DNA of 33,627 bases from a phage. Location: NCBI GenBank assembly GCA_012551655.1, contig GCA_012551655.1_3034.1, one strand, 5' to 3'. Numbering within the stretch: the first letter of the stretch is position 1; the number at the start of each line of letters is the position of its first letter. The notes below the pieces were generated by a model. The model made no database searches and had not been told where the DNA came from. It was given only the letters and a program-made list of their open reading frames with translations. The translations under genes were made by a program, and so were the position numbers. Positions 1,765 through 27,024 of this stretch are shown here, one piece after another.

Positions 1765-4700
1765 ATGGCCGAGATTAAAAGAAAGTTCAGAGCAGAAGAT
1801 GGTCTGGACGCAGGTGGCGATAAAATAATCAACGTAGCTTTAGCTGATCGTGCCGTAGGAACTGACGGTGTTAACGTTGATTACTTAATTCAAGAAAACA
1901 CAGTTCAACAATACGATCCAACTCGTGGATATTTAAAAGATTTTGTAATCATTTATGATAACCGCTTTTGGGCTGCTATAAATGATATTCCAAAACCAGC
2001 AGGAGCTTTTAATAGCGTACGCTGGAGAGCGTTACGTACTGATGCAAACTGGACAACTGTTTCATCAGGACCTTATCAATTAAAATCGGGCGAATCAATT
2101 TCAGTTGATACTGCAGCTGGTAATGACATTACATTTACTTTACCATCTTCTCCAATTGATGGTGATACCATCGTTCTCCAAGATATTGGAGGAAAACCTG
2201 GAGTTAATCAAGTTTTAATTACAGCTCCGGTACAAAGCATTGTAAATTTTAGAGGTCAGCAAGTACGTTCAGTACTAATGACTCATCCAAAATCACAGAT
2301 AGTTTTAATTTTTAGTAATCGTCTGTGGCAAATGTATGTTGCTGATTATAGTAGAGAAGCTGTAGTTGTAACTCCTGCGAGTCTCTATCAGGCACAATCA
2401 AACGATTTTATCGTACGTAGATTTACTTCTGCTTCAGCAATTAATATTAAACTTCCAAGATTTGCCAATCATGGCGATATTATTAATTTCGTTGATTTGG
2501 ATAAATTAAATCCTCTTTATCACACAATTGTTACTACATATGATGAAACAACTTCAGTACAAGAAGTTGGAACTCATTCCATTGAAGGTCGTACATCGAT
2601 TGACGGTTTCTTGATGTTTGATGATAATGAGAAATTGTGGAGATTGTTTGACGGGGATAGTAAAGCACGTTTACGCATTATAACAACTAATTCTAATATT
2701 CGTCCAAACGAAGAAGTCATGGTATTTGGCGCGAATAATGGAACAACCCAAACAATTGAACTTCAGCTTCCGACTGATATTTCTGTTGGTGATACTGTCA
2801 AAATTTCCATGAATTACATGAGAAAAGGACAAACAGTTAAAATCAAAGCTGCCGGTGAAGATAAAATTGCTTCTTCAGTTCAATTGCTGCAATTTCCAAA
2901 ACGTTCAGAATACCCACCTGAAACTAAATGGGTGACTGTTCAAGAATTAGTTTTTAATGGTGAAACCAATTATGTTCCAGTTTTACAGCTTGCTTATATC
3001 GAAGATTCCGATGGAAAATATTGGGTTGTACAGCAAAACGTTCCAACTGTAGAAAGAGTAGATTCTTTAAATGATTCTACTAGAGCAAGATTAGGCGTAA
3101 TTGCTTTAGCTACACAAGCTCAAGCTAACGTCGATTTAGAAAATTCTCCACAAAAAGAATTAGCAATTACTCCAGAAACATTAGCTAACCGTACTGCTAC
3201 AGAAACTCGTAGAGGTATCGCAAGAATAGCAACTACTGCTCAAGTTAACCAGGATACTACATTCTCTTTTGCTGATGATATTATCATCACTCCTAAAAAG
3301 CTGAATGAAAGAACTGCTACTGAAACTCGCAGAGGTGTTGCTGAAATTGCTACGCAGCAAGAAACTAATGCAGGAACCGATGACACTACAATCATCACTC
3401 CTAAAAAGCTTCAAGCTCGTCAAGGTTCTGAATCATTATCTGGTATTGTAACTTTTGTATCTACTGCAGGTGCTACTCCAGCTTCTAGCCGTGAATTAAA
3501 TGGTACAAATGTTTATAATAAAAACACTAATAACTTAGTTGTTTCACCTAAAGCCTTGGATCAGTATAAAGCTACTCCAACACAGCAAGGTGCAGTAATT
3601 TTAGCAGTTGAAAGTGAAGTAATTGCTGGACAGAGTCAAGAAGGATGGGCAAATGCAGTTGTAACTCCAGAAACGTTACATAAAAAGACATCAACTGATG
3701 GAAGAATTGGTTTAATTGAAATTGCTACGCAAAGTGAAGTTAATACAGGAACTGATTATACTCGTGCAGTCACTCCTAAAACTTTAAATGACCGTAGAGC
3801 AACTGAAAGTTTAAGTGGTATAGCTGAAATTGCTACACAAGTTGAATTCGACGCAGGCGTCGACGATACTCGTATCTCTACACCATTAAAAATTAAAACC
3901 AGATTTAATAGTACTGATCGTACTTCTGTTGTTGCTCTATCTGGATTAGTTGAATCAGGAACTCTCTGGGACCATTATACCCTTAATATTCTTGAAGCAA
4001 ATGAGACACAACGTGGTACACTTCGTGTAGCTACACAGGTCGAAGCTGCTGCAGGAACATTAGATAATGTTTTAATAACTCCTAAAAAGCTTTTAGGTAC
4101 TAAATCTACTGAAGCGCAAGAAGGTGTTATTAAAGTTGCAACTCAGTCTGAAACTGTGACTGGAACGTCAACAAATACTGCTGTATCTCCAAAAAATTTA
4201 AAATGGATTGTGCAGAGTGAACCTACTTGGGCAGCAACTACTCTGATAAGAGGTTTTGTTAAAACTTCATCTGGTTCAATTACGTTCGTTGGTAATGATA
4301 CAGTAGGTTCAACACAGCCATTAGAATCATATGAGAAAAATGGTTATGCAGTATCACCATATGAATTAAACCGTGTATTAGCAAATTATTTGCCGTTAAA
4401 AGCAAAAGCTGCTGATACAAATTTATTGGATGGTCTAGATTCATCTCAGTTCATTCGTAGGGATATTGCGCAGACAGTTAATGGTTCACTAACCTTAACC
4501 CAACAAACGAATCTGAGTGCCCCTCTTGTATCATCTAGTACTGCTACGTTCGGTGGATCAGTTTCAGCAAATAGTACATTAACTATTTCTAATACTGGAA
4601 CAGCAACTCGATTGATTTTTGAGAAAGGACCTCAAACTGGAACAAACCCAGCCCAAACGATGACTGTTAGAGTGTGGGGTAATCAATTTAGTGGGGAATC

Positions 4701-5634
4701 AGACACAACACGTTCTACTGTATTTGAAGTTGGTGATGAAACGTCTAATCATTTTTATTCTCAGCGCAATAAAGCTGGAAATATAACATTTAATATCAAC
4801 GGTACGGTAACACCTATAAATGTTAATGCTTCAGGAACATTGAATGCAAATGGCGTAGCAACATTTGGTAATTCAGTCACTGCAACTGGTGAAATTATTT
4901 CTCGAAGCGCAAATGCTTTCCGTGCTATTAGCGGAAATTATGGTTTCATTGTTCGCAATGATGGATCAGTAACGAATTTTATGCTTACTGCATCGGGTGA
5001 TCAGACTGGCGGATTTAATGGATTGCGTCCTTTAGCTATCAATAATGCATCTGGTCAAGTAACGATTGGCGAAAGCTTAATTATTGCCAAAGGTGCTACT
5101 ATAAATTCAGGCGGTTTGACTGTTAACTCGAGAATTCGTTCTCAGGGCACTAAAACATCTGATTTATACACCCGCGCGCCAACATCTGATACAGTAGGAT
5201 TCTGGTCAATTGATATTAACGATTCAGCCACTTATAATCAATTCCCTGGTTATTTTAAAATGGTTGAAAAAACTAATGAAGTGACTGGACTTCCATACTT
5301 AGAACGTGGTGAAGAGGTTAAATCTCCTGGTACATTGACTCAGTTTGGTAACACACTTGATTCGCTTTACCAAGATTGGATTACTTATCCAACAACACCA
5401 GAAGCGCGTACCACTCGTTGGACACGCACATGGCAGAAAACCAAAAACTCTTGGTCAAGTTTTGTTCAGGTATTTGACGGAGGTAACCCTCCTCAACCGT
5501 CTGATATTGGTGCTTTACCATCTGATAATGCTATAATGGGTAATCTTACTATTCGTGATTTCTTACGAATTGGTAATGTTCGCATTATTCCTGACCCAGT
5601 GAATAAAACTGTTAAATTTGAATGGGTTGAATAA
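1765..5634 (+). CDS. 34: Long tail fiber proximal subunit gp34 (1289 aa)
   Basis: 1289-aa ORF, same length as T4 gp34; late promoter upstream; followed by 35-36-37-38; internal ~38-aa repeats (ITPKKLNERTATETRRG...IATQ). Confidence 0.95.
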   Translation: MAEIKRKFRAEDGLDAGGDKIINVALADRAVGTDGVNVDYLIQENTVQQYDPTRGYLKDFVIIYDNRFWAAINDIPKPAGAFNSVRWRALRTDANWTTVSSGPYQLKSGESISVDTAAGNDITFTLPSSPIDGDTIVLQDIGGKPGVNQVLITAPVQSIVNFRGQQVRSVLMTHPKSQIVLIFSNRLWQMYVADYSREAVVVTPASLYQAQSNDFIVRRFTSASAINIKLPRFANHGDIINFVDLDKLNPLYHTIVTTYDETTSVQEVGTHSIEGRTSIDGFLMFDDNEKLWRLFDGDSKARLRIITTNSNIRPNEEVMVFGANNGTTQTIELQLPTDISVGDTVKISMNYMRKGQTVKIKAAGEDKIASSVQLLQFPKRSEYPPETKWVTVQELVFNGETNYVPVLQLAYIEDSDGKYWVVQQNVPTVERVDSLNDSTRARLGVIALATQAQANVDLENSPQKELAITPETLANRTATETRRGIARIATTAQVNQDTTFSFADDIIITPKKLNERTATETRRGVAEIATQQETNAGTDDTTIITPKKLQARQGSESLSGIVTFVSTAGATPASSRELNGTNVYNKNTNNLVVSPKALDQYKATPTQQGAVILAVESEVIAGQSQEGWANAVVTPETLHKKTSTDGRIGLIEIATQSEVNTGTDYTRAVTPKTLNDRRATESLSGIAEIATQVEFDAGVDDTRISTPLKIKTRFNSTDRTSVVALSGLVESGTLWDHYTLNILEANETQRGTLRVATQVEAAAGTLDNVLITPKKLLGTKSTEAQEGVIKVATQSETVTGTSTNTAVSPKNLKWIVQSEPTWAATTLIRGFVKTSSGSITFVGNDTVGSTQPLESYEKNGYAVSPYELNRVLANYLPLKAKAADTNLLDGLDSSQFIRRDIAQTVNGSLTLTQQTNLSAPLVSSSTATFGGSVSANSTLTISNTGTATRLIFEKGPQTGTNPAQTMTVRVWGNQFSGESDTTRSTVFEVGDETSNHFYSQRNKAGNITFNINGTVTPINVNASGTLNANGVATFGNSVTATGEIISRSANAFRAISGNYGFIVRNDGSVTNFMLTASGDQTGGFNGLRPLAINNASGQVTIGESLIIAKGATINSGGLTVNSRIRSQGTKTSDLYTRAPTSDTVGFWSIDINDSATYNQFPGYFKMVEKTNEVTGLPYLERGEEVKSPGTLTQFGNTLDSLYQDWITYPTTPEARTTRWTRTWQKTKNSWSSFVQVFDGGNPPQPSDIGALPSDNAIMGNLTIRDFLRIGNVRIIPDPVNKTVKFEWVE
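3150..4210 (+). repeat. Intragenic array of about 9 degenerate ~110-nt repeats inside gene 34
   Basis: Recurring nucleotide blocks (atcactcctaaaaagct..., actgaaactcg(c/t)agaggt...) encoding repeats of (I/V)TP(K/E)xLxxRxATE(T/S)xxG(I/V)AxIAT(Q/T). Confidence 0.7.
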
Positions 5635-5642
5635 GAGGTATT

Positions 5643-6761
5643 ATGGAAAAATTTATGGCAGAGTTTGGACAAGGATATGTCCAAACGCCATTTTTATCGG
5701 AAAGCAATTCAGTAAGATATAAAATAAGTATAGCGGGTTCTTGCTCGCTTTCTACTGCAGAAGGACCATACGTTAAATTTCAGGATAATCCTGTTGGAAG
5801 TCAAACATTTAGCGCAGGACTTCATTTAAGAGTTTTTGACCCTTCTACAGGAGCATTAGTTGATAGTAAGTCATATGCTTTTTCGACTTCAAATGATACT
5901 ACATCAGCTGCTTTTGTTAGTTTCATGAATTCTTTTTCAAACAACAGACTTGTTGCTATATTAACCAGTGGAAAGGTTAATTTTCCTCCTGAGGTAGTAT
6001 CTTGGCTAAGAGCCGCGGGAACGTCTGCTTTTCCATCTGATTCTATATTGTCAAGATTTGACGTATCATATGCTGCCTTTTATACTTCTTCTAAAAGAGC
6101 TATTGCATTAGAACATGTTAAACTAAGTAATAGAAAAAGCACAGATGACTATCAAACTATTTTAGATGTTGTATTTGATAGTTTAGAAGACGTTGGAGCT
6201 ACAGGATTTCCTAAAAGAACATACGAAAGCGTTGAGCAATTTATGTCAGCGGTTGGTGGAACTAATAACGAAATTGCACGTTTACCAACTTCATCCGCGA
6301 TAAGTAAACTCTCTGATTATAATTTAATTCCTGGCGATGTTCTTTATCTTAAAGCACAGCTATATGCTGATGCCGATTTACTTGCGCTTGGAACTACAAA
6401 TATATCTATCCGTTTTTATGATGAATCGAATGGATATATTTCTTCAACACATGCTGAGTTTACTGGACAAGCTGGGTCATGGGAATTAAAGGAAGATTAT
6501 GTAGTTATTCCAGAAAATGCAGTAGGATTTACGATATATGCACAAAGAACTGCCCAAGCAGGTCAAGGAGGCATGAGAAATTTAAGCTTTTCTGAAGTAT
6601 CAAGAAATGGCGGCATTTCAAAACCTGCTGAATTTGGCGTCAACGGTATTCGCGTTAATTATGTCTGTGAATCCGCTTCGCCTCCAGATATAATGGTACT
6701 TCCTACACAAGCATCGTCTAAAACTGGTAAAGTGTTTGGGCAAGAATTTAGAGAAGTTTAA
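5643..6761 (+). CDS. 35: Long tail fiber hinge connector gp35 (372 aa)
   Basis: 372-aa ORF as in T4 gp35; SD agagg before ATG; position between 34 and 36. Confidence 0.9.
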   Translation: MEKFMAEFGQGYVQTPFLSESNSVRYKISIAGSCSLSTAEGPYVKFQDNPVGSQTFSAGLHLRVFDPSTGALVDSKSYAFSTSNDTTSAAFVSFMNSFSNNRLVAILTSGKVNFPPEVVSWLRAAGTSAFPSDSILSRFDVSYAAFYTSSKRAIALEHVKLSNRKSTDDYQTILDVVFDSLEDVGATGFPKRTYESVEQFMSAVGGTNNEIARLPTSSAISKLSDYNLIPGDVLYLKAQLYADADLLALGTTNISIRFYDESNGYISSTHAEFTGQAGSWELKEDYVVIPENAVGFTIYAQRTAQAGQGGMRNLSFSEVSRNGGISKPAEFGVNGIRVNYVCESASPPDIMVLPTQASSKTGKVFGQEFREV

Positions 6762-23649: not shown

Positions 23650-23679
23650 ATTATACCACATCCTTGTGGTAAAGTAAAC
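23650..23679 (-). promoter_or_regulatory. T4-type early promoter for rIIA.1-rIIA, overlapping the 3' end of gene 39
   Basis: GTTTAC (23679-23674), 18 bp, TATAAT (23655-23650). Confidence 0.55.
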
Positions 23680-25496
23680 TACTGGCTCATCCATTCTTTA
23701 CGAAGGTCAGCATTATCTCCCATGAGCATTTCAAAAAGCTCTTTCCAGTTCTCAGGAAGTTTAACAACATCATATACTGGATTTTGAATCATCTCACGAT
23801 ATTCAGATTTTTCCAAAGAGCCAAGTCCTTTAATATAACGGATGCTATGTTTAGGTAGAGCATCTTTGGCACTCTCATATTCAGCGACTGTATAAAACCA
23901 TTCTTGTTTTTTACCGACCTGAGCGATGATTACAGGAGTTTTGACAAAGCGAATTCGTCCTTGCTCAAACAATTCTGGCCAATTACTAAAAAATCCAAGC
24001 AGAGAAGGATAAATGCTTCCTAGACCATCATGGTCAGCATCAGTCATAATAGCAATATTATGATAATTCAAGTTTTCAGCTTTTTCACCGAGAACTAATC
24101 CAGTGATTGCGCAAATATCAAATAGTTCTTTGTTTTTAAGCATATCAGCATATGACATACCCCAACTATTAAGAACTTTACCACGCAATGGATAACCACC
24201 ATGAAGTTCTTTATCACGAACATCAATAAGATATCCGATAGCCGAATCACCCTCAGTCAAGAAAAGAGTCGTGTCAGCATCTTTACCACAAAGATTCGCT
24301 TTAATATGTTTATGAACCTTAGCTTTAGAAGCCTTTTTAGCTGCTTTTGTTTCTGCTGCTTTTTCTGCTGCCAATTTACGAGCCAAAGCAGCTTCAATAA
24401 TCGGCATTAGAATTGCTTCATTATTTAGAATAGCACGTGAAATCTTTTTAGCATCAAGCTGAATATGACTACGGATTTCACCAAATGGAGAAGTCAAACG
24501 CTCTTTAGTTTGAGAATCAAATCGCATGTTTTTCATATCACGAACAAACATAACGATAGTCAAACATTCTTTAACACGTGCTTTAGTTACATCAATTTTG
24601 AATTTACGTTTGATTTGTGGAATAAGGTCTTCACAAATATCATCCATAACACAGTCAATGTGATGGCCACCATTCTTAGTGTGAATGTTATTCACATAAG
24701 TTAATTGACGAAATCCATCCGGTGAACGACCAACCGCAATAGAACAATTTTCTTGTTCTTGAACAATAGCATGTTCATCATACTGTCGTGCATATTTCTT
24801 AAAATTACCCTGAACCTTTTTACCATTAAAGGTAAATTGAATATCAGGATAAACAACAGCAAGTGTCTGGAGACGATCTAGTGTAATGTCAAGATAAACT
24901 TGGGACAGCTCATTAGTTTCAAATGACATAAAATCAGGAATGAAAGTAACACGAGTTCCTTTCCATTTTCCTGGAATAGTTTCCCATGATTTATTTTCCA
25001 TGCCATTTGAACAACGAACTACAATATTATTTTGACCATCGCCAGTTTCACCAACAAACATCACAGAAAAAATGTTAGTTAAACTAGAACCAACACCGTT
25101 CATACCGCCGGTGACGCGTTCTTTATCATCACCGAAGTTACCACCTGCTTTTGGAATAGTCCATGCAGCAACAGGACCAGGAATTTCTTCACCGGTAGGT
25201 GTTTTAACCATCGCTTGTGGAATACCGCGACCGTTATCTTCAACTGTTACTTGATTGTTTTTAATAGTAACGTTAATTTTATTTGCGAATTTAAACTTAG
25301 TACGAATACCTTCATCTACTGAGTTATCGATAATTTCATCAATAAGCTTAACAAGACCAGGTACATACTGAACACTTTCCCATTTACCAAACAGAAAGCG
25401 CTCATGCATTTCATTAGCAGAAGAACCAATGTACATGCCGCTACGCTTTTTGATATGTTCAATATCGCTCAGAATTTTAATTTCATTCTTAATCAT
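23679..25496 (-). CDS. 39: DNA topoisomerase II large subunit gp39, unsplit (605 aa; GyrB-like ATPase plus Toprim)
   Basis: Track ORF begins at GTG; ATG at 25496 with GAGGA SD. Motifs EIIDNSVDE and DNGRGIP (GHKL ATPase), EGDSA and DADHDG (Toprim). Single continuous ORF. Confidence 0.9.
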   Translation of the reverse strand: MIKNEIKILSDIEHIKKRSGMYIGSSANEMHERFLFGKWESVQYVPGLVKLIDEIIDNSVDEGIRTKFKFANKINVTIKNNQVTVEDNGRGIPQAMVKTPTGEEIPGPVAAWTIPKAGGNFGDDKERVTGGMNGVGSSLTNIFSVMFVGETGDGQNNIVVRCSNGMENKSWETIPGKWKGTRVTFIPDFMSFETNELSQVYLDITLDRLQTLAVVYPDIQFTFNGKKVQGNFKKYARQYDEHAIVQEQENCSIAVGRSPDGFRQLTYVNNIHTKNGGHHIDCVMDDICEDLIPQIKRKFKIDVTKARVKECLTIVMFVRDMKNMRFDSQTKERLTSPFGEIRSHIQLDAKKISRAILNNEAILMPIIEAALARKLAAEKAAETKAAKKASKAKVHKHIKANLCGKDADTTLFLTEGDSAIGYLIDVRDKELHGGYPLRGKVLNSWGMSYADMLKNKELFDICAITGLVLGEKAENLNYHNIAIMTDADHDGLGSIYPSLLGFFSNWPELFEQGRIRFVKTPVIIAQVGKKQEWFYTVAEYESAKDALPKHSIRYIKGLGSLEKSEYREMIQNPVYDVVKLPENWKELFEMLMGDNADLRKEWMSQ

Positions 25497-25523
25497 CACT
25501 TATCCTCGTTTGGTTTCGGGAAT

Positions 25524-25547
25524 ATTATACTCCGGTAATCATAAAGC
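25524..25547 (-). promoter_or_regulatory. Candidate MotA-dependent middle promoter for gene 39
   Basis: Minus strand aGCTTTA (MotA-box-like, one mismatch to TGCTTtA), 12 bp, TATAAT (25529-25524); no GTTTAC -35. Confidence 0.4.
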
Positions 25548-25548
25548 T

Positions 25549-25566
25549 AAAGGCCCGAAGGCCTTT
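25549..25566 (-). other. AAAGGCC-UUCG-GGCCUUU hairpin between the lipoprotein gene and the gene 39 promoter
   Basis: 7-bp stem, UUCG loop on the minus-strand RNA; short U-run only. Confidence 0.45.
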
Positions 25567-25826
25567 TATTTAAAACGGATAGTCGAATCCTTGAAGAATA
25601 GACCAGAACATACGGTTCCTTCTACTTTCTGCCCGGTAGGTCCAATAGCGCGAAATCCAGTATGTTGGAAATCATTTTCAGAGCAACCGAACCAATTGTA
25701 TCCAGTGATTTCAATATTAGTAAAACCGCTTGATGACAAAATTTTGGTTGCATTATCAGCATCAGTACATCCTGCTAAAGACACTGCTAATACTAATGCT
25801 GCGATAGAACGATTAATATATTTCAT
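25566..25826 (-). CDS. Hypothetical small lipoprotein (86 aa)
   Basis: ATG at 25826 gives MKYINRSIAALVLAVSLAGCTDADN...: signal peptide with lipobox LAGC; the track start at 25838 is TTG. Confidence 0.55.
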   Translation of the reverse strand: MKYINRSIAALVLAVSLAGCTDADNATKILSSSGFTNIEITGYNWFGCSENDFQHTGFRAIGPTGQKVEGTVCSGLFFKDSTIRFK

Positions 25827-25830
25827 AATT

Positions 25831-26202
25831 TCACTCAAATTTAATGGCTTGAAGAAGACTAATAATTCTCAAGCGACTTCTTTCATCTTTAACTGTAAAA
25901 GAAAGAGGGTCACCAGATTTCATAGTGATGGTGCATCCAAAATCAAAATCTTCTGTAACTTCTTCGAAGAAGTCAAATTCTTCATCATAAATTAGAACAT
26001 TACTCTGAAAGCTGTGAAGAATTTTTCCATCATTTCCAGATGCTGTACTAATCATTGTAACATTATGACCTTTCATATCTTCAACGATAAATTCGCTTGT
26101 AGATATTACTGCATTAATAGAACCGTTCCTATGAATAGCAGAAAATAGATATTTCTTTTCTTCACCTTCGCGAACACGATATTTCTTACCGATTTTAAAC
26201 AT
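25831..26202 (-). CDS. Hypothetical 123-aa protein
   Basis: ATG at 26202, 2 nt after the upstream stop. Confidence 0.55.
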   Translation of the reverse strand: MFKIGKKYRVREGEEKKYLFSAIHRNGSINAVISTSEFIVEDMKGHNVTMISTASGNDGKILHSFQSNVLIYDEEFDFFEEVTEDFDFGCTITMKSGDPLSFTVKDERSRLRIISLLQAIKFE

Positions 26203-26204
26203 AA

Positions 26205-26381
26205 TTACCCTTTAAGTAAGTCGTAAAATCCACCATTCACATGCTTAGGAGCAGAAGGCCGACGAGTAGACAAACGATGACATTTAGGGCAAACATCATT
26301 TTCTCGTTCAGAAATCTTTTTAATTTTTTCATATTCATGCCCGCAATCTTCGGATTGGCATTTATAATCATACATTGGCAT
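26205..26381 (-). CDS. Hypothetical 58-aa zinc-ribbon protein (two CxxC pairs)
   Basis: MPMYDYKCQSEDCGHEYEKIKKISERENDVCPKCHRLSTRRPSAPKHVNGGFYDLLKG; AAGGAA SD; tightly packed between neighbours; not in the ORF track. Confidence 0.5.
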   Translation of the reverse strand: MPMYDYKCQSEDCGHEYEKIKKISERENDVCPKCHRLSTRRPSAPKHVNGGFYDLLKG

Positions 26382-26383
26382 AA

Positions 26384-26809
26384 TTATTCCTTAAAGTGTG
26401 CTTTCAACATCTGATACAAGGACCATGCCTGTTCATTATTTTCAATAGTAACTTTCATGACCGGGAATTCTGTGAAATCTTCTATTTGTTCTTGCTCTTT
26501 CTCTTCCTGCTCTTGCTCTTCAGCTGCCTGGTATGGATTTTCAACTTCATCAAAGAACCCAGCTTCGCTAGTAGAAAGCCAGATAAAGTTTTCGTCAAGG
26601 ATATCACCATGTGTTGCATATCCAACTGTGCCAGTAGATGTCACAATTTTAGTAGGACGACCAAGATGGTCAACATCTAAAATTTTAAAAGGATGCATAC
26701 CTAAACGGCGCGCATAGATTCCGTTATCAGTATGATCTTTAATAAAATTTTCTTGAGCTTGTTTATTTTTAAATTGATACCATTTATTAACTTCAAATTT
26801 AATAGCCAT
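26384..26809 (-). CDS. Hypothetical 141-aa protein (size and position of T4 goF)
   Basis: 141 aa, acidic [12 protein letters not shown] tract; assignment by size and synteny only. Confidence 0.55.
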
Positions 26810-27024
26810 TAATAAGTTTCCTTCCAGTAAGTTGTGCCATCTTCAGTAATTTCACGAAATACACCGTAAATTGGTTGTTTATCACCAACCTTTTCATACA
26901 CATAAACCGAAGTCAAGTGAGTAAACTTAACGGTATGTTCTTTTTGAACTACTACCAAATCTGGATCGAATAGTACATCTTCAAATTCGTCATTAGTGCA
27001 ATTCTGAACAATTTTACGTTTCAT
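26809..27024 (-). CDS. Hypothetical 71-aa protein (size and position of T4 cef)
   Basis: 71 aa; stop overlaps downstream ATG by 1 nt; assignment by size and synteny only. Confidence 0.5.

Follow-up and report, generated by a model that had tools for sequence, protein, structure and literature searches.

The closest described counterpart of the gene analyzed here is gene 39.2 of phages T4 and RB69, whose product, Gp39.2, is said to have been named NwgI by Ang and Georgopoulos (Genetics 2012;190:989). The gene was reportedly first found from RB69, the homologues in T4, RB43 and RB49 are said to behave alike, and overproduction is reportedly lethal. A paper by one of the NwgI authors (PMC5153855) describes the T4 39.2 product as a 58-aa peptide and a subtle modulator of GroES/GroEL. 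According to that paper, genetic and biochemical data suggest that Gp39.2 shifts GroEL toward an open conformation to which co-chaperones of the GroES type, from the host or the phage, can bind, and T4 lacking 39.2 is blocked when certain groEL mutants serve as host. PMC4396842 gives the same summary, and our literature search on Gp39.2 and NwgI found no newer mechanistic or structural work.

The second point of reference is the FmdB family of zinc ribbons (PF09723; TIGR02605, CxxC_CxxC_SSSS), which is characterized by an N-terminal MPxYxYxC and two cysteine knuckles. The protein described here follows this plan with MPMYDYKC...C and CPKC, but its first knuckle is Cx4C whereas that of the family is nominally CxxC. 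Bacterial members of the family are 86-120 aa long, have Ser/Lys-rich tails and mostly sit upstream of aspS; the phage protein lacks the Ser-rich extension and its gene lies among phage early genes.

The DNA analyzed is a single stretch of 33,627 nucleotides, hereafter the window (contig GCA_012551655.1_3034.1). Judging from DNA identity, it comes from a Tequatrovirus, a T4-like phage: Tequatrovirus records give the best matches both to a 1.7-kb and to a 24.6-kb stretch of it, with identities of 94-99%. The frame under study occupies positions 26205..26381 on the minus strand and comprises 58 codons and a TAA stop (26207..26205), with an ATG start at 26381..26379 and the product MPMYDYKCQSEDCGHEYEKIKKISERENDVCPKCHRLSTRRPSAPKHVNGGFYDLLKG. 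In BLASTP this product is identical to Gp39.2 of resequenced T4 (T4T) at 47 of 58 positions, with no gaps (81%, E 5e-37), and to RB69 Gp39.2 at 53 of 57 positions (93%, E 1e-41). The T4 and RB69 proteins are 58 and 59 aa long, respectively, and occupy the same slot, between goF and 39.1/39. In the window the order on one strand is cef (26809..27024, minus), goF (26384..26809, minus, directly upstream of 39.2), 39.2, an extra 123-aa ORF (25831-26202, minus), 39.1 (25566-25826, minus) and 39, encoding the topoisomerase large subunit (23679-25499, minus). This order matches PP01, T4 and RB69, and the PP01 record, which uses T4 gene names, calls the homologous ORF 39.2 and shows it flanked by goF/cef and 39.1/39. 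By similarity and position, the frame is an ordinary orthologue of T4 gene 39.2, a gene that already has a name and has been studied. The first-pass annotation had presented it as an unlisted ORF, which is true of the ORF track that it worked from; public records do annotate it, under the names 39.2, "FmdB-like transcriptional regulator" and "zinc ribbon domain protein."

The start region is as the first-pass annotation had described it, with an AAGGAA Shine-Dalgarno sequence, an ATG and tight packing between neighbors, to which we can add the strand that it left unstated. Read on the minus strand, the sequence preceding the ATG is ...TTTAAGGAATAATTATG, in which the AAGGAA (26392..26387) lies 5 nt before the ATG and within the last codons of goF. 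The goF stop codon TAA (26386..26384) falls between the two elements, giving the order AAGGAA, TAATT, ATG, and the ATG of the next gene is at 26202, 2 nt after the 39.2 stop, so that 39.2 is separated from each neighbor by 2 nt and is indeed tightly packed. A DNA alignment shows that the Shine-Dalgarno sequence, the start and the goF junction are identical in T4 and PP01.

The surrounding genes depart from the T4 arrangement in some details. The 123-aa ORF splits 39.2 from 39.1 here and in PP01, whereas T4 has no such ORF. It shares a PHROG with goF (phrog_622, E 2e-28). BLASTP of the ORF against its neighbor goF gives no significant match (E 0.21), and the ORF could be a paralogue of goF that has diverged strongly. 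Gene 39.1 encodes a predicted lipoprotein of 86 aa, MKYINRSIAALVLAVSLAGC..., whose lipobox is LAGC; its ATG at 25826 agrees with the T4T start, and the mechanical ORF call reaches an upstream TTG. Gene 39 is unsplit (605/606 aa), as in RB69, and is without the T4 gene 60 / mobA insertion and translational bypass. Its true start is likely the ATG at 25496 (MIKNEIK...) and not the mechanically listed GTG at 25499. The 39.1 stop is followed by a hairpin, AAGGCC-TTCG-GGCCTT (25565..25549, minus). Next to it on the 3' side is TAGCTTTA (25548..25541), and a TATAAT (25529..25524) comes after a further 11 nt, shortly before gene 39. From what is known of T4, we take these elements at 25524-25565 (minus) to resemble a terminator and, after it, a middle promoter of the MotA-box type; a simple scan listed neither a hairpin terminator nor a middle promoter there.

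That the 58-codon frame is a genuine gene follows not from ORF length alone but from profile matches, conservation in many phages and coding-type substitutions. The first-pass annotation had suggested a search against zinc-ribbon profiles, and two of these match above their curated cut-offs: Pfam PF09723 (Zn_ribbon_8; E 6.7e-12; 45.7 bits, gathering score 34.4) and NCBIfam TIGR02605 (FmdB-family zinc ribbon; 44.9 bits, cut-off 31.3). The protein also matches phrog_1076 (E 7e-12). The frame is also conserved in other phages, a point that the first-pass annotation had proposed to check in T-even phages. A tblastn search with the protein finds it in 886 phage records, with coverage of at least 80% in 852 of the 886 and an identical sequence in 216, and the hosts of these phages span several genera (Escherichia, Shigella, Yersinia, Salmonella, Serratia, Citrobacter, Erwinia and Cronobacter). 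The differences from RB69 and T4 lie mainly at third codon positions. Of the codon changes relative to RB69, 12 are synonymous and 4 non-synonymous, and third positions account for 13 of the 19 base differences; the corresponding codon counts relative to T4 are 16 and 11.

By profile score and motif, the 39.2 protein is a member of the FmdB zinc-ribbon family, and the first-pass call of a zinc ribbon holds, with four ligand positions in place. The description of the ligands as two CxxC pairs 20 residues apart needs correction. The second knuckle, C31-PK-C34 (26280..26291, minus), is indeed CxxC; the first, C8-QSED-C13 (26343..26360, minus), is Cx4C, and 17 residues lie between C13 and C31. The TIGR02605 match is confined to profile positions 1-39 of 52, and the tail, SAPKHVNGGFYDLLKG, contains no Ser run. 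A Ser-rich region is not demanded by the Pfam domain definition of PF09723.

An exhaustive search of 1.84 billion cluster representatives yielded 155 relatives at E <=0.001, from which the alignments were built; a word-indexed protein search returned 7 close clusters only. Most of the 155 are 50-120 aa long and start with MPxYxYxC. All sequences in an alignment of 57 have M1, C8 and C34; C13 and C31 are nearly invariant, and P2, Y4, Y6, C13, C31, P32 and G51 are at least 90% conserved. All of the 142 short relatives examined have the four ligand positions, and the conservation of the cysteines, on which the first-pass reading depended, is thereby borne out, with the qualification that one ligand can be His. 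The spacing of the ligands is variable: 75 of the 142 are CxxC...CxxC and 39 are Cx4C...CxxC, and a Cx4C first knuckle occurs in 43. The 39.2 homologues of krischviruses such as RB49 (RB49 locus 3129-3302) are CxxH...CxxC, with His in place of the second Cys (CEEHG), and the homologues in RB43 (locus 5454-5615) and in Certrevirus phages (loci 1501-1677) are CxxC...CxC. Homologues of 39.2 are also found outside the Straboviridae, in the Vequintavirinae, where they adjoin a pyrophosphatase gene.

An AlphaFold2 model built from the homologue alignment has strands at residues 3-8, 16-20, 28-30 and 37-40, with a pLDDT of 86-87 for residues 1-40. One modelled knuckle joins strands 1 and 2 and the other strands 3 and 4, a topology like that of a zinc ribbon. 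Two beta-hairpins, each with a knuckle, as predicted here, would match the topology of generic zinc ribbons of known structure (Rpb12, ribosomal protein bL33, the MCM N-terminal zinc ribbon and RbpA). A PDB sequence search with the protein gave a non-significant match to bL31 only (E 0.78). The 39.2 protein presumably binds zinc.

The other conserved part of the protein is its C-terminal tail, S43-APKHVNGGFY-D54 (26220..26255, minus), recognized from its conservation in T4-like homologues. The pattern (S/T)AP-x4-GG(F/Y)YD is kept in T4, RB69, TG1, RB49 and 15 further cluster representatives, and in this T4-like subgroup it is the best-conserved segment outside the knuckles. The T4 and RB69 proteins have the same Cx4C...CxxC cysteine pattern and an identical tail, PKHVNGGFYDLLK. 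T4 Gp39.2 differs from the protein in the window at 11 of 58 positions, mostly between the knuckles and just past the second one, and despite these differences the tail motif and the ligands are identical. The model has a pLDDT of ~60 over residues 41-58, which is low confidence, and this segment is probably flexible. The tail corresponds to the bacterial F-x-LKGGGWY motif, with G-G-aromatic-aromatic following the ribbon in both, and the conserved SAPxxxNGGFYD may be a partner-binding motif. One plausible division of roles has the ribbon as a compact scaffold, with the tail serving as a short linear motif for contact with a partner, presumably GroEL. The mobile loop of GroES has the sequence SAGGIVL, which the tail sequence NGGFYDLL loosely resembles. 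Because the motif is too short and degenerate for a sequence test, this likeness is speculation.

Gene 39.2 in the window is the orthologue of NwgI, and we consider it probable that its product, a zinc ribbon with a conserved tail, is by orthology a modulator of GroEL. The GroEL effect itself, including the suppression of groEL/groES mutant phenotypes, is taken from the literature on T4 and RB69 and is, by orthology, the most likely function; the allele in the window would be expected to behave like those of T4 and RB69. The gene would be translated from a leftward early-region transcript that also carries cef, goF, the 123-aa ORF and 39.1, its start being closely coupled to the end of goF. 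Residues 1-40 would form the four-ligand FmdB-family ribbon (Cys8, Cys13, Cys31 and Cys34), and residues 41-58 the conserved, probably flexible tail. The protein would bind host GroEL and shift its equilibrium toward an open form that accepts GroES or the phage co-chaperonin. As an outcome, the folding of phage proteins that depend on the chaperonin would be helped in hosts with a poorly matching GroEL.

A different main partner could be engaged through the GG(F/Y)Y tail, with the GroEL phenotypes being secondary, for example an effect of overproducing a small polypeptide that interacts with GroEL. The tail motif is common to Gp39.2 and the bacterial homologues of the FmdB family, whose genomic setting we examined in 80 bacterial loci fetched with a 12-sequence alignment. 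In 65 of these loci the conserved neighbor is not groESL; aspS lies directly downstream, followed by yebC and ruvCAB, and these aspS-type loci are mostly from Gammaproteobacteria. Against another main partner stands the phenotype of the T4 deletion on specific groEL mutant hosts, given in PMC5153855; an artefact of overproduction is hard to square with a deletion phenotype at native expression. A further point against it comes from the same 80 loci, searched by tblastn for chaperonin neighbors with E. coli GroEL and GroES query sequences. In three of them, all in metagenome-assembled genomes of Myxococcota, the family member is 70-90 nt upstream of groES-groEL and on the same strand. On balance we regard another main partner as unlikely.

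The three Myxococcota loci (L013, 6832-7547; L015, 10001-12331; L021, 10001-12272) are an isolated lead. The genes upstream of groES in these loci encode proteins of 104-120 aa with an LKGGGWY motif and a Ser-rich tail. A general association of FmdB genes with chaperonin genes can be rejected, with groESL adjoining 3 of the 80 loci and aspS 65, and since its members are mostly upstream of aspS, the family gives no independent support for a GroEL role. It is formally conceivable that the GG-aromatic-aromatic tail is a chaperonin-docking motif of the whole FmdB family, and that Gp39.2 is a minimal version of a widespread bacterial type of GroEL modulator. The sole independent hint of this is the three Myxococcota genes upstream of groES-groEL, and we think it distinctly unlikely. 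If it were true, the label "transcriptional regulator" would be wrong for thousands of bacterial genes.

That label underlies another reading, in which 39.2 encodes a small zinc-ribbon transcription regulator or nucleic-acid binder that acts on phage or host expression. Both the RefSeq/PHROG label "FmdB-like transcriptional regulator" and the first-pass annotation, which saw in the ribbon a nucleic-acid-binding or regulatory module, suggest as much. The label, as used in RefSeq and PHROGs, reflects the family name only, and Pfam and NCBIfam searches with the protein detect no DNA-binding family at cut-off and only sub-threshold zinc-finger noise. What experiments on Gp39.2 found is modulation of GroEL, and this points to a protein-protein role. 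A regulator is very unlikely; of the first-pass reading the zinc ribbon survives, and the suggested nucleic-acid-binding role differs from the published function. Finally, although ORFs as short as 58 codons do arise by chance in AT-rich DNA, profile matches at E ~1e-11 and above curated cut-offs, conservation in 886 phage genomes across several genera, an excess of synonymous change, a conserved Shine-Dalgarno sequence and coupled start, and the genetics of T4 39.2 as summarized in PMC5153855 leave an unexpressed chance ORF with a negligible probability, and on the conservation data we reject it.

The comparison with the NwgI orthologue of T4 also brings out a problem with the T4 reference, NC_000866, in which the annotated 39.2 is just 45 aa long. 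This is due to one extra base: in the DNA alignment its 39.2 region (locus 5650-5839) is a base longer than those of the window and PP01, and removal of a single base restores a 58-aa frame. In the resequenced T4 records HM137666, MT984581 and KJ477684 the product is 58 aa long, which fits the 58-amino acid peptide of PMC5153855. An old sequencing error is the probable origin of the extra base in NC_000866. Similarly, 39.1 is 65 aa long in the T4 reference and 86 aa in resequenced T4 because of another one-base discrepancy. In LR746311 (vB_SsoM_113) and PP987310 (Manna), the tblastn match to 39.2 is in two pieces and the deposited proteins end out of frame with ...VIVCLLVGLLLLSM, which indicates frameshifts, either sequencing errors or pseudogenes.

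As a discovery, the gene carries little weight, since hundreds of T4-like genomes already have 39.2 annotated and a function has been published for its product. Of practical value is the recognition that the NC_000866 discrepancy shortens 39.2 to 45 aa and that 39.1 is cut short in a similar way. The sole experimental evidence, which is of GroEL modulation, is at odds with the label "FmdB-like transcriptional regulator," although this annotation is widely propagated. GroEL is an 800-kDa chaperonin of 14 subunits, and the conserved tail offers a concrete target for mapping how a protein of 58 aa may act on it.
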